From assembly GCA_963771355.1 (NCBI GenBank), contig CAVYTA010000006.1:2496001-2560000 (forward strand): a DNA stretch of 64,000 nucleotides. Reading direction: 5' to 3'. Both the position numbers and the translations under genes were made by a program. Below the pieces are notes generated by a model. The model saw only the letters and a list, made by a program, of their open reading frames with translations, did not search any database and was not told where the DNA came from. Below, piece after piece: positions 46,421-50,898 of this stretch. How positions within the stretch are numbered: position 1 is the stretch's first letter; every line of letters begins with the position of its first letter. Origin of the DNA: an uncultured Candidatus Rokubacteria bacterium (lineage in GTDB: Bacteria; Methylomirabilota; Methylomirabilia; Rokubacteriales; CSP1-6).

Positions 46421-47740
46421 CTACTTCCCCATCAACCGCGCGGGAAGCCAGGTGGCCAGCCCGGGGAAGAGCGCCACCAGCAGCAGCATCACCAGCCCCA
46501 GTATCACGTAGGGGGTCACCGCGCCGCAGACCTGTCCCATGGTGATGGACCGCGGCGCCACGCTCTTCATGGTGAAGAGGAGCATGCCGAAGGGCGGCGT
46601 GAGCAGGCCGAGCTGCATGCAGATGAGGAAGAGCACGCCGAACCAGACGGGGTCGAACCCGTAGAGCGTCACCAGCGGCATGAAGAACGGCAGCGTGATC
46701 AGCATCATGCTCACCTGGTCGATGAAGCAGCCCAGGACGAGCAGGATGAGCATCATGACGGTGAGGACCGCGGCGGGGCCGAACTGGGCGTCCTGCACCG
46801 CCGCCACCAGCCCGTTGGTCGCCCCCGAGAACGTCAGGATCTGGGAGAAGGTGGTGGCGCCCACGATGATGAAGAGGATCACCCCGGAGATGCCCGCCGT
46901 TCCCAGCAGGGCCTTCAGCAAGCCGTCCCAGGTCAGCGCGCGGTACATCGCCGCCACCAGCACGGTGGCCACCGCGCCGATGGCGGCGGACTCGGTGGGA
47001 GTGGCCCAGCCCGCGGCCATGGCGAGGATCACCACCACGAAGATGATCACCAGCGGCAGCACGTACACCACCAGGGGCCGCCAGCGGACCCAGCCGCGGA
47101 CCGGCTCGTGCGCGAAGGCCGGCGCGAGCCGTGGATCGAGCACGGCGCGGACGACGATATAGCCCACGAAGGAGGCGGCGAGGAGCACGCCGGGCACGAT
47201 GCCGGCGAGGAGGAGCCGCGAGATGGAGATGCCGGCCAGGCTGCCGAGGAGCACGGTGAGCGCGGAGGGCGGGATGAGCATGTCCACGCCCCCGATGGCC
47301 ATGATGGGGCCCATCGCCATCCCGGGCTGATAGCCGCGCCGGAGCATCTCGGGAAGCAGGAGGCTGCCCAGCAGCGCGGTGGTGGCGATGGTGGAGCCGG
47401 AGATCGCCGAGAACACCGTCCCCGCCACCACCGCCACCACCGAGAGACGCCCGGGGACGCGGGCGATGAGCCGGTCGATGGCGTCGATGGCCTTCATGGC
47501 CACCCCGGTGTGGAAGAGCACCTCCCCCATGAGCACGAAGAACGGGATCGGCGTGAGGGAGAAGCTCGCGATGGACGCCACCCCGTTCCGGATCATCTGC
47601 ACGAGGCCGGCGTCCCCGCCCAGCCACACCCAGGCGCCCACCACGTTGATCGCGAGGAACGCGAAGGCCGCCGGGAGGCCGAAGGCGAGGAGCACCGACA
47701 GGAGGCCGAAGAGAAGGGTCGCCGCGAGCCACCAGACCAT
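46421..47740 (-). CDS. dctM: TRAP transporter large permease
   Basis: IPFFVLMGE, LIPPS, TPTESAA, LTPPFG. Confidence 0.93.
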   Translation of the reverse strand: MVWWLAATLLFGLLSVLLAFGLPAAFAFLAINVVGAWVWLGGDAGLVQMIRNGVASIASFSLTPIPFFVLMGEVLFHTGVAMKAIDAIDRLIARVPGRLSVVAVVAGTVFSAISGSTIATTALLGSLLLPEMLRRGYQPGMAMGPIMAIGGVDMLIPPSALTVLLGSLAGISISRLLLAGIVPGVLLAASFVGYIVVRAVLDPRLAPAFAHEPVRGWVRWRPLVVYVLPLVIIFVVVILAMAAGWATPTESAAIGAVATVLVAAMYRALTWDGLLKALLGTAGISGVILFIIVGATTFSQILTFSGATNGLVAAVQDAQFGPAAVLTVMMLILLVLGCFIDQVSMMLITLPFFMPLVTLYGFDPVWFGVLFLICMQLGLLTPPFGMLLFTMKSVAPRSITMGQVCGAVTPYVILGLVMLLLVALFPGLATWLPARLMGK

Positions 47741-47766
47741 GAAGGAACCGGGGGACGAGCGCGCCG

Positions 47767-48261
47767 CTAGGCGTGCGGCCCGCTGCCCTCGAGGGCCCCG
47801 CCGAGCAGAAGGCGCCGCACGAACTCCACCCCGAGCACGGCGAAGCACACCGGCACCGGGGCATAGAGCCACCATTCCGGGAAGACGACCGCCTTGATCA
47901 CCATGGAGCCCTGCTGGGCCGAGCTGGCGATGGCCCGCGCGCCATAGATGACGAAGACCGTGGAGACGGCCAGCCCCACCAGGTCCGAGAGCCGCTCCAG
48001 CGCGCGCGCGGCGGGCCCCGGCAGCGAGGTGAGCAGGACGTCGAGCCGCACGTGCTCGTTCCGGTGGAGCAGCCACGGCGCCACCAGGAAGGTGGCGAGG
48101 GGAAGGCTATACTCCGAGACCTCGATGATCCAGGGCAGGGTCCCGAGCCCGAGGTTCCGGGCGAGGACGTCTCCGGTCACCAGGAGCGCCAGCACACCGA
48201 GGAGAAGCGCGGCCGCCACCGCCCCCGCGCGCAGCAGCCCCCGGTAGGCCCGCCCGAGCAT
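47767..48261 (-). CDS. dctQ: TRAP transporter small permease
   Basis: Four hydrophobic segments; EHVRLD. Confidence 0.88.
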   Translation of the reverse strand: MLGRAYRGLLRAGAVAAALLLGVLALLVTGDVLARNLGLGTLPWIIEVSEYSLPLATFLVAPWLLHRNEHVRLDVLLTSLPGPAARALERLSDLVGLAVSTVFVIYGARAIASSAQQGSMVIKAVVFPEWWLYAPVPVCFAVLGVEFVRRLLLGGALEGSGPHA

Positions 48262-48267
48262 CGCGCG

Positions 48268-49239
48268 CTATTTCTTGGAGAACAGCTCGCGCATCTTCGG
48301 CCCGTGCTCGGGACTGGCCTTGACCACGCCCGCCCAGCCCGCCTCGTACGCGCGGTCGACATACTGCTGCGCCGCCGCGCCCTCGAAGCGGATGACCTCG
48401 ATGCCCGCCTGCTGCTGACGCTTGGTCTCCTCCTGGGCGTAGGTCTTCCAGAAGTCGTTCTGGGCCTCGAGCGCGCGGGCCTGCTTGGTGAGGTAGTCGC
48501 GCTGGGCGGGGGTGAGCCGCTTCCACGTGTCCAGGTTCACCAGGAGCGACACCTCGGCGTCGTAGAAGCCGGGGTCCACGCGGTACTTGGTCTTCTCGTG
48601 CCAGTTGAGGTCGAAGATGCCGCCGATGGGCCAGCCGTAGCCGTCCACCACGCCGCGCTCGAGCGCGGTGTACACCTCGCCCGGCGCGGTCTGCATCACG
48701 GTGGCGCCCAGCGCGGTGAAGAAATCGCGGTACACCGGGGTCACGCGGATCTTCAGCCCGGTGAGGTCGGGCTTGTCGATCTTCTTGTTCAGGTAGACGT
48801 GGAAGGCCTGGTGCTCGACGATGCGGGCGAGGTACTGCATGTTGCCCTTCTGGTTCCACAGCCGGTTGATGTAGTCGAAGGCGCCGTTGGTCCGCTGCTC
48901 GGCGACCGGCATGCGGGTGAGCTTGAGCGCGTCGGACTCCGGGAACACGTTCGTGTAGAAGGCGCCGGTGGACATGGCCACGTCGACGACCCCGGTGCGC
49001 ACGGCATTGCCGACCTCGAAGGTGGGCACCGCCTTGGGCCCGCCGATGAAGTTCAGCCGCAGCACCCCCTTGCCCTCGTCGTTCACGCGCCCGATCCAGG
49101 TCTCGAGCCGCTTCACGTAGAGCGAGTTCTCGGGGAAGGCGCTCACCACCTTGAGGGTGACCTCCTGCGCGCCCGCGACGGGGGGCAGGAGGACGAGGGC
49201 CGAGACGAGGACAGTGACGATCCGGGCGACGGTCCGCAT
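48268..49239 (-). CDS. dctP: TRAP solute-binding protein
   Basis: Signal peptide; [18 protein letters not shown]. Confidence 0.93.
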
Positions 49240-49264
49240 GGGCTCCTCCTCGTTGAGAGCCGGG

Positions 49265-50359
49265 CTAGGGCGCGAGGTCGGCGATGCGGCGCACCGGTGT
49301 GCCATCACGCCGCCGGATCACCCGATGCGCGGGCCGCGTCTGATCGCCGAAGGTCGGCTGCCAGCAGGAGTGCTTGCCGGCGCCGCCCACCACGATGACG
49401 GTGATGTCGTCCGGCGACTTCACGATCGGGACCATGGTGTCCGCCCGGTCCGGGTTCTTGCGCCCCTCCACGAGGAAGCGGCGGTACTCCTCTCCGAGGA
49501 GCCCGAGCGGATAGCGGGCGTGCTCGAAGACGAACTCCTTCACCTGGCGCTTGGTGTACCCGTCGCGAGCGATGGTGGCGGCGTGCTCGGGGCCCAGGGC
49601 CAGCAGCGGCGTGCCCCCGGAGAGCAGGTTGTTGCTCCCCGCCTGCCCCATGGCCCCGGCGATGATCTTGAGGACGCCGACGCCGGTATAGCTGTAGTGG
49701 TCCTGGATATTGTGCGGGCCCTCGCAGCCGAACACGGTGACGGTGCTGGCGTCGCGCGGATACCCGGCCTCGACGTGCAGCGGCTCCCAGGGATTGGCGT
49801 CCTCGTTCTCCGCCACGCAGTAGGAGATCTTGGCCGGGCTGCCCTGGGTGGAGCGGTCCCCGGTGCCGGGCAGGCCGCCGCCCACGTTCATCAGCACCAG
49901 GCGCACCGCGCGCCCGATGGTCAGGTTGGGCGCGAAGCCCTGCCCGAAGGCGTTGTAGCCGCTGTTGATGCCGAGCTCGCGCGCGATGGGCCCGTTCACG
50001 ATCATCAGCGGCGCCACCGGGTGCGTGGTGGCCTGGATGGAGTCGAGGTTGAAGCCGGGATCGGCCAGGGCCTCGATCGCCGTGATGATCACGGGCAGAT
50101 ATTCCGGGCGGCACCCCGCCATCACGGTGTTGACGGCGATGCGCTCCACGGTGGCCTCGCCCTGGCGGGGCGGCAGCACCGCGATCAGCTCGCGGGGATC
50201 CCGATCGGTGTGGCGCAGGCACTCCGCCACCGCCTCCGCGGTGGGCGGCACGATGGGAAGCCCGTCCGTCCAGCCCCGCTCCTGATAGAGCCGGTTGATG
50301 GCGGGATAGGAGTCTTCCAAACGGAAGGTCTTGGCGGCAGGGCCGAGGTCCACCTTCAT
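49265..50359 (-). CDS. uncharacterised partner of the UGSC selenoprotein
   Basis: [31 protein letters not shown] coupling to the upstream gene. Confidence 0.8.
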
Positions 50360-50898
50360 TAACTCGCCGCCTTTACGGTAACCGCTTTGACCACGAGGTC
50401 GATGACCAGCTCCGCCTTCTTCAGCACCTCGTCCTCACGGATCCCGCCGAGCGGATGCGGGATGAGCGCGAGGGGGAGATCCGCCATGCCGCGGTTCTTG
50501 GCCTCCAGCTTGGCGAGCTGCTCGAACTCGAAGGTCCCCAGGACGACGGACGGGATCCCCTTCTGCTCCAGCACGATGGCGCCGTGGATACTCCACGACG
50601 TGCACGACCCTCAGTCGGCGCTGCCGACCAGGGCGAAGTCGCACTGGGTGAGCGCGTCGAGGATGGTGGGCGACGGCGCCCCCGCGATGCCCTTCTCGCG
50701 CTTCACGATCTCGCCCACGCCGTACTGCTCCTGGAGCCGGCGCGCTACCGTCAGCATCAAGAAGCCGGCATTGGCCTTGCTGTTGTCGAGAATGGCCACC
50801 TTCTTGCCGCGCAGGCTCGAGAGCCGCTGGGCGAGGCCCGCGGCGAGGATGCGGGGCTCGGCGGTGGGATCGTAGAGGACCACTTCCTTCGCGCTCAT
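50359..50898 (-). CDS. UGSC-family selenoprotein (Sec at 50611-50613)
   Basis: Two ORFs join in frame as VGSAD[TGA]GSCTSWSIHG...EQKGIP, giving a UxxC motif. Confidence 0.92.
50580..50600 (-). promoter_or_regulatory. bacterial SECIS-like hairpin
   Basis: CGUCGUGGA-GUA-UCCACGGCG, starting after a 10-nt spacer from the UGA. Confidence 0.75.

Follow-up and report, generated by a model that had tools for sequence, protein, structure and literature searches.

Five consecutive genes of an uncultured Candidatus Rokubacteria bacterium were analysed, which encode a selenoprotein of the UGSC family, a 364-amino-acid partner protein, and the three components of a tripartite ATP-independent periplasmic (TRAP) transporter. 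They are located in a stretch of 64,000 nucleotides (contig CAVYTA010000006.1, positions 2,496,001 to 2,560,000), which is referred to in its full length as the window. The features of the locus are as follows (window positions):

50359..50898, minus strand: UGSC-family selenoprotein gene, 179 amino acids with U96-G-S-C99, read through the TGA; Pfam UGSC
50611..50613, minus strand: in-frame TGA, read as the selenocysteine codon (U96)
50580..50600, minus strand: hairpin of the selenocysteine insertion sequence (SECIS), 9-bp stem, GUA loop, G23/U24 (numbered from the U of UGA)
49265..50359, minus strand: 364-amino-acid partner ("Unknown_1"), start overlapping the UGSC stop (TAATG)
48268..49239, minus strand: DctP solute-binding protein, near PDB 4mnc/4mni; over the Pfam cut-off
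47767..48261, minus strand: DctQ small permease; over the Pfam cut-off
46421..47740, minus strand: DctM large permease; over the Pfam cut-off

The gene arrangement given in an initial annotation of this DNA was reproduced. The UGSC and partner genes are coupled by TAATG (junction ...AGT-TAATG-AAG), and the gaps between partner and dctP (25 nt), dctP and dctQ (6 nt), and dctQ and dctM (26 nt) are all shorter than 30 nt, as claimed. The DctP, DctQ, and DctM domains are consecutive. The spacing suggests that the five genes form one co-transcribed operon. A promoter or terminator consensus was looked for on the minus strand and none was found. In the contigs of 4 of 20 RNA runs, all from one study, genes and flanks were covered alike, a pattern which shows neither transcription nor co-transcription.

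The selenocysteine codon of the UGSC gene

Read-through of the TGA yielded the 179-amino-acid protein with D95-U96-G-S-C99 that had been predicted. The Pfam UGSC model (PF24696) matches residues 8–174 and thus spans both sides of the TGA (148 bits, cut-off 25), and the NCBIfam model (NF041046) scored slightly below its cut-off (123.7 vs. 125). The UGA lies in frame within U-G-S-C and is followed on its 3' side by the SECIS hairpin. In the accessible parts of the papers on PF24696 and NF041046, family, motif, and selenocysteine codon are shared with the window protein.

The hairpin had been called well placed. Its folding energy is unremarkable compared with shuffled sequences (z −0.9 to +0.2), but its structure is conserved. 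A comparison was made with 72 TGA-bearing motif matches (one of them spurious) from five of the genome's own loci and from 80 diverse partner loci, the latter being the best-scoring 80 of 612, which cover many phyla and are biased toward the query. At seven stem positions, 90% of the bases paired in register, compared with 17–51% when the strands were slid against each other. The stems themselves differ by clade (GUGGA/UCCAC, GUGCA/UGCAC, GGGCA/UGCUC). G23 and U24 are present in 67 of the 72 matches, with the spacing of Escherichia coli fdhF. The loop is formed by the serine codon AGT in 59 of 72, a rare codon accounting for 2.4% of the serine codons in the source genome; in two cysteine-coding homologues, the SECIS loop is gone. 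The genome (99.8% complete) contains selA, selB, and selD, all over their cut-offs, as well as a tRNA-Sec(UCA), so that the machinery which the initial annotation had left to be confirmed is present. The coding score 3' of the TGA did not discriminate, as 65 of 1,125 open post-TGA frames scored equally high.

Because the TGA is shared among homologues, some of which carry cysteine instead, because the SECIS element is conserved, and because the selenocysteine machinery is complete, the UGSC protein is, on sequence grounds, considered a real selenocysteine protein. Frame-broken genes elsewhere in the window demonstrate that assembly errors happen, and the TGA might accordingly be a true stop or such an error, which would leave a 95-amino-acid fragment or a pseudogene. 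With the same TGA in all six UGSC paralogues of the genome and in all 150 listed matches of relatives, in addition to the arguments above, the probability of this explanation is negligible.

All 72 family genomes sampled carry UGSC genes (2–12 copies each, with one TGA in every listed match), as do 98 of 121 genomes of the phylum. The initial annotation described the UGSC family as lacking an assigned function, which agrees with the accessible parts of Zhang & Gladyshev 2007 (PMC1976440) and 2008 (PMC2398784). In Table 2 of the latter, UGSC, with 255 sequences, ranks among the selenoprotein families that are most abundant in metagenomes from ocean and freshwater. Cysteine forms of UGSC occur with a partner in a Methanobacterium record (L191) and in Sphingomonas (L176). 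At two further loci, selB is located directly 3' of the UGSC-partner pair (L173) and an Rdx/SelW-like gene 5' of it (L148).

The partner protein and its association with UGSC

The partner contains M80-A-G-C83 and the additional cysteines C47, C181, C212, and C332. The MAGC motif and the other cysteines noted earlier are therefore present, but only C83 (117 of 125 members) and C181 (115 of 125) are conserved, and C181 is replaced in several clades. The conserved polar residues (D32, N77, C83, T112, N145, R150, C181, E184, and W191) lie within residues 30–210, and the C-terminal part is variable. No Pfam or NCBIfam family was found for the partner. Its own family comprises 5,776 clusters at 50% identity, and close homologues carry the labels Rokubacteria/Methylomirabilota. 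Residues 75–134 match the pattern AVN.VMAGC.PEY.P...IVNGP in Fig. S1A of PMC2398784, which identifies the partner as "Unknown_1". The 2008 paper shows UGSC/Unknown_1 as one fused protein, whereas in the window the partner has a gene of its own, coupled translationally to UGSC; the accessible parts of that paper assign Unknown_1 neither a function nor a fold and do not survey its gene order. A 315-amino-acid partner subfamily, mostly from Poribacteria, has no UGSC gene within the fetched flanks (L170, L194, L195, L201, L202).

The structural model of the partner reached a predicted local distance difference test (pLDDT) score of 96.8. A Foldseek search with this model gave no match at E ≤ 0.001. 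The top VIA match (Z 5.3, root mean square deviation (rmsd) 2.9, 86 aligned residues) lies below the usual background, is confined to residues 212–340, and leaves residues 1–180 barely covered. The rows ranked first by Foldseek were class I fumarate hydratases (best E 1.6e-3, TM 0.23–0.29), which also gave the VIA alignments of greatest length (7xky_A: Z 4.5, rmsd 5.6, 192 aligned). With MmgE/PrpD and dehydratase genes being common neighbours, the partner might thus be a metal- or Fe-S-dependent lyase distantly akin to the class I fumarase alpha subunit, acting without redox chemistry and with selenocysteine and cysteine as cluster ligands. However, a Z of 4.5 is lower than the usual background best of 7–8, and homology to the fumarase alpha subunit was ruled out by the profile comparison (0.2%) and the missing cluster-ligand motif PxCQDTG, which makes this explanation very improbable. 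The partner was also rejected as a homologue of GrdE (HH-suite profile comparison, 0.26%), and none of the 125 partner members matched a glycine reductase Pfam family.

The gene neighbourhoods were analysed with gene calls from our own script and an annotation of cluster representatives and flanking genes. Each of the six UGSC genes of the source genome has a partner homologue beside it or fused to it, with both orders occurring, and a UGSC gene on the same strand was detected at 71 of the 80 diverse partner loci. The other nine include four from Poribacteria, one from a relative of those, and two at contig edges. A whole or partial UGSC domain was present in 51 of the 69 long partner homologues scanned. 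The same-strand UGSC genes at 71 of 80 loci and the fusions in both orders support the view that UGSC and the partner form one unit. DUF6282 genes are located between UGSC and partner in L145, L147, and L154 (in L157 nearby), two of these loci having a thioredoxin-reductase-like gene on the 5' side. Two or three distinct UGSC/partner units occur in tandem in L145, L151, L152, L154, and L196, and one UGSC gene with two partner genes in L160, L175, L199, and L209, which suggests heteromers. Frequent neighbours of the 80 loci encode luciferase-like monooxygenases, CoA-transferases, enoyl-CoA hydratases, MmgE/PrpD proteins, and amidohydrolases.

Thioredoxin-reductase-like CxxC genes were detected directly 5' of the pair in 6 of the 80 loci, belonging to two clades, and in P0270 such a domain is fused to the partner. 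These neighbours, together with the selenoprotein B similarity described below, make redox chemistry likely for the pair. Of the two-component selenium-dependent redox enzyme postulated earlier, the single unit and the likely redox function were retained; the imported acid as its substrate was not supported for this locus.

Similarity to selenoprotein B and the proposed reaction

The families nearest to UGSC are the substrate-attacking B-type selenoproteins of glycine reductase (Grd) and proline reductase (Prd). An NCBIfam scan covered 56 UGSC members, which are related and therefore do not count as independent. The glycine reductase selenoprotein B model TIGR01917 matched 18 of these 56 (best E 4.5e-7), PrdB (TIGR04483) 10, GrdF 3, and TIGR01918 and GrdH one each. 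These five selenoprotein B models are among the seven families ranked next after UGSC itself. In HH-suite, UGSC was aligned with a profile of the C-terminal regions of GrdB and PrdB over 107 columns (probability 84%, E 7.7e-6, score 42.6). The GrdB/PrdB profile was built from 16 such regions of relatives read through selenocysteine, after two false motif matches had been dropped. Masking of the U-x-x-C motif reduced the probability to 51% and the score to 34.7, compared with 20.2 for the reversed profile and 31.3 for the top of 30 column shuffles.

The UGSC model (pLDDT 91.8, 56 rows) is a five-stranded alpha/beta sandwich with alternating strands and helices, in which U-x-x-C is located at the start of the helix behind strand 3. 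Flavodoxin-like, receiver, and periplasmic-binding domains make up the listed structural matches, with none standing out (best natural match: Z 10.8, rmsd 3.5, 134 aligned). The thioredoxin fold is not among them, a listing which does not exclude it, and none of the 56 UGSC members matched a thioredoxin Pfam family. Sequence searches of the PDB with either protein or its profile yielded nothing credible. The accessible parts of PMC1976440, the 2008 paper (PMC2398784), and a 2026 review (PMC13188914) group UGSC with thioredoxin-like folds, whereas the model obtained here is flavodoxin-like with Grd/Prd selenoprotein B as the nearest families.

GrdB/GrdF/GrdH and PrdB share with UGSC the U-x-x-C motif behind a hydrophobic strand and followed by a helix, as well as an E..G[IV]P strand and an HP(L)G-like segment. 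Both systems are two-gene units with a larger partner and thioredoxin-system neighbours. In contrast to Grd selenoprotein B, UGSC comprises only 179 amino acids and is devoid of the N-terminal part covered by Pfam GRDB. Its partner differs from GrdE/PrdA in having no similarity to pyruvoyl proproteins (as judged from the GrdE profile), and no genes for GrdA/C/D or PrdC adjoin it. The strand-helix-strand context of U-x-x-C is the same and homology is detectable, which indicates a distant homology of moderate strength rather than membership in the selenoprotein B families. Whereas the UGSC family and its fusion to Unknown_1 were already known, the link to selenoprotein B appears to be new; literature searches on UGSC function yielded selenoproteome surveys only, no link to GrdB/PrdB was found in the accessible ones, and subscription papers, Pfam/InterPro text, or supplements may hold one. 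A search for PF07355 in the source genome found nothing. Many Methylomirabilota genomes (L107–L136) encode GrdE-GrdB-like pairs, and many encode PrdB-like selenoproteins with no adjoining PrdA in the 1.5-kb flanks; neither was found in the source genome.

By analogy, UGSC and its partner might constitute a two-part reductase of the Grd/Prd type. In it, UGSC would supply the selenolate nucleophile and C99 the resolving thiol, the partner would be a substrate-binding subunit of a new kind, and a thioredoxin system would act as the reductant. We give this reading an even chance. In proline reductase, PrdB's selenocysteine attacks the carbon of the substrate that PrdA holds (PMC11229817, Fig. 1 legend), and a cysteine variant of PrdB is inactive according to the accessible text of the same paper. 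Correspondingly, the partner would hold a small organic substrate, which the selenolate of U96 would attack and cleave. C99 would then resolve the selenium adduct to a selenenyl-sulfide, as expected from Grd/Prd chemistry, and the oxidised centre might be re-reduced by NADPH via a thioredoxin-reductase-type flavoprotein, possibly through C83 of the partner. Each paralogous partner may have its own substrate, which would account for the 2–12 pairs in Rokubacteriales and their occurrence in catabolic and uptake neighbourhoods. What the sequences themselves document are the selenocysteine signals and machinery, the constant pairing or fusion, and, with moderate strength, the similarity to GrdB/GrdF/GrdH/PrdB around and beyond U-x-x-C.

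Several observations weigh against the Grd/Prd-type reading. The window UGSC protein alone matched none of TIGR01917, TIGR01918, TIGR04483, and PF07355 in the Pfam and NCBIfam scans, the HH-suite comparison gave a moderate probability from a shallow Grd/Prd profile (16 rows), and no GrdB/PrdB structure is among the listed fold matches. As the partner is unrelated to GrdE, the activation step would be without precedent. No thioredoxin reductase gene was found near the eight partner loci of the source genome, no substrate-specific gene was found to recur across phyla near the 80 diverse loci, and of 16 natural fusions of full length, 5 have lost U/C and the second C of UGSC and keep both partner cysteines.

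The last observation would also fit a thiol relay, the main rival explanation, which we regard as unlikely. The partner would then be a cysteine-dependent sulfoxide, N-oxide, peroxide, or disulfide reductase operating with C83 and C181, and UGSC would serve this enzyme alone as its selenium reductant and be supplied by thioredoxin reductase. The conservation of both cysteines, the thioredoxin-reductase neighbours and the fusion of such a domain to the partner, the two of eight partner loci in the source genome with no adjoining UGSC gene, and the automatic name "thioredoxin fragment" of one Atlas cluster of the partner are all in accordance with a relay. However, C181 is not retained in every clade, and the nearest relatives of UGSC attack substrates and are not thioredoxins. 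Moreover, one UGSC-partner fusion of the source genome (G000:C5:163681-165321; L006, L025) keeps H-U-S-T-C and has neither conserved cysteine in its partner domain, as expected if the partner binds the substrate and is not an electron relay.

The TRAP transporter and the substrate

The initial annotation proposed that the ligand of the window DctP could reveal the substrate of the pair. In this case, the pair would act on the cargo of the window TRAP transporter, likely an aromatic 2-oxo acid, in an uptake-plus-conversion operon assembled in the genus. Besides the tight spacing, the distribution of dctP genes is consistent with this proposal: of the 20 dctP genes in the genome, 7 have a coupled 5' gene, and 2 of these 7 follow UGSC pairs (approximately 3e-5 under a uniform null). 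A second TRAP operon lies 3 kb from the UGSC locus (54026-58023, minus strand). In a DNA search for the operon in 100 family genomes (two candidates scored per genome), the complete operon was found in three congeners only, and the pair-dctP link was present in four of the five genomes of the genus examined. Among 80 metagenome contigs with the window DctP (70 informative), the pair was located 5' of DctP in seven, all with at least 88% identity.

Outside this circle, the link was not detected. None of the 29 informative other orthologous pair loci (30 fetched) has a dctP gene on the 3' side, including that of a congener (G049) which the tree nests within the linked genomes. The pair was absent from the four informative of seven orthologous TRAP loci and from all 54 loci of DctP relatives below 88% identity. 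Genes of the indolepyruvate-oxidoreductase alpha- and beta-type were found 3' of this TRAP transporter in eight and seven loci, respectively, so that in these relatives DctP tends to be followed by oxidoreductases for aromatic 2-oxoacids. At the window locus, the transporter thus does not accompany the enzyme beyond close kin. The window DctP is very close in overall sequence to the solute-binding protein 4mnc/4mni (E 8.9e-146, residues 20–322; next match 2.4e-13). The ligand of 4mnc/4mni (Polaromonas Bpro_4736) is presumably benzoylformate, with which an aromatic 2-oxo acid as cargo would agree. Because the pair is linked only in close kin and oxidoreductase genes follow elsewhere, the window DctP likely reports on another pathway, and the transporter is likely a recent genus-level addition importing an aromatic 2-oxo acid for it. 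The proposal that the pair converts this cargo is therefore considered improbable, and the DctP ligand is not expected to disclose the substrate.

The general link to transporters survives in a weaker form, since another TRAP transporter, unrelated to that of the window, stays with a paralogous pair and uptake genes adjoin other pairs. The paralogous locus (G000:C6:2275940-2282291; L024, L247), which is the second of the two UGSC pairs with a coupled dctP, comprises genes for IclR, a luciferase-like monooxygenase, partner, UGSC, and dctPQM. Of 13 informative genomes, 12 (with one truncated dctP) have kept the order partner-UGSC-dctP, and full-length matches span nine genera, so that this uptake operon is conserved within one family; the TRAP transporter also occurs at 13 loci with no intact pair. 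Its DctP (G000:C6:2277779-2278804) is unrelated to that of the window (28% identity over 140 amino acids), and its nearest structures are 2pfy/2pfz (E 4.5e-36), which we take to be the pyroglutamate-binding proteins of Bordetella. Among the 80 diverse loci, 15 directly adjoin a same-strand uptake gene (10 TctC, 3 family-5 ATP-binding cassette transporter, 1 DctM, 1 TctB). Pyroglutamate-binding proteins of Bordetella are mentioned in PMC5812351. In Betaproteobacteria, TctC genes adjoin 10 of 21 loci, which was rejected as a signal, being inseparable from the local density: TctC accounts for 43 of the 169 other genes there, and each of five genomes tested contains at least 133 TctC genes.

Elsewhere on the minus strand of the window, an amidase-like gene (52698-53934) and a 2-oxoglutarate/Fe(II) oxygenase-like gene (59074-60190) each continue in another frame, due to an assembly indel or as pseudogenes. 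A row of genes at 39963-44344 resembles, by sequence, the ATP-dependent ligase LigC, the LigD polymerase domain, and PolX-PHP.

The tie to selenoprotein B provides a concrete mechanism for a family without a function since 2007 and names the partner as the subunit expected to hold the substrate. It points to an assay, namely dithiol- or thioredoxin-driven reductive cleavage with trapping of the selenium adduct, for which natural cysteine-form pairs or fusions (for instance locus L176 and the proteins P0218 and P0229) can be expressed without recoding. The target of a ligand screen moves from the window DctP to the paralogous DctP with the conserved pair link, which appears to be the better choice. 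Somewhat more tentatively, UGSC and its partner may represent a third, very widespread branch of the selenocysteine-dependent bond-cleaving reductases beside glycine and proline reductase. In this branch, the catalytic domain of selenoprotein B would stand alone, joined to a substrate-binding subunit that is pyruvoyl-free and whose fold the PDB does not yet contain, and an expansion in soil Rokubacteria would have given paralogues for different substrates, one of which might be readable from the TRAP transporter kept across nine genera.

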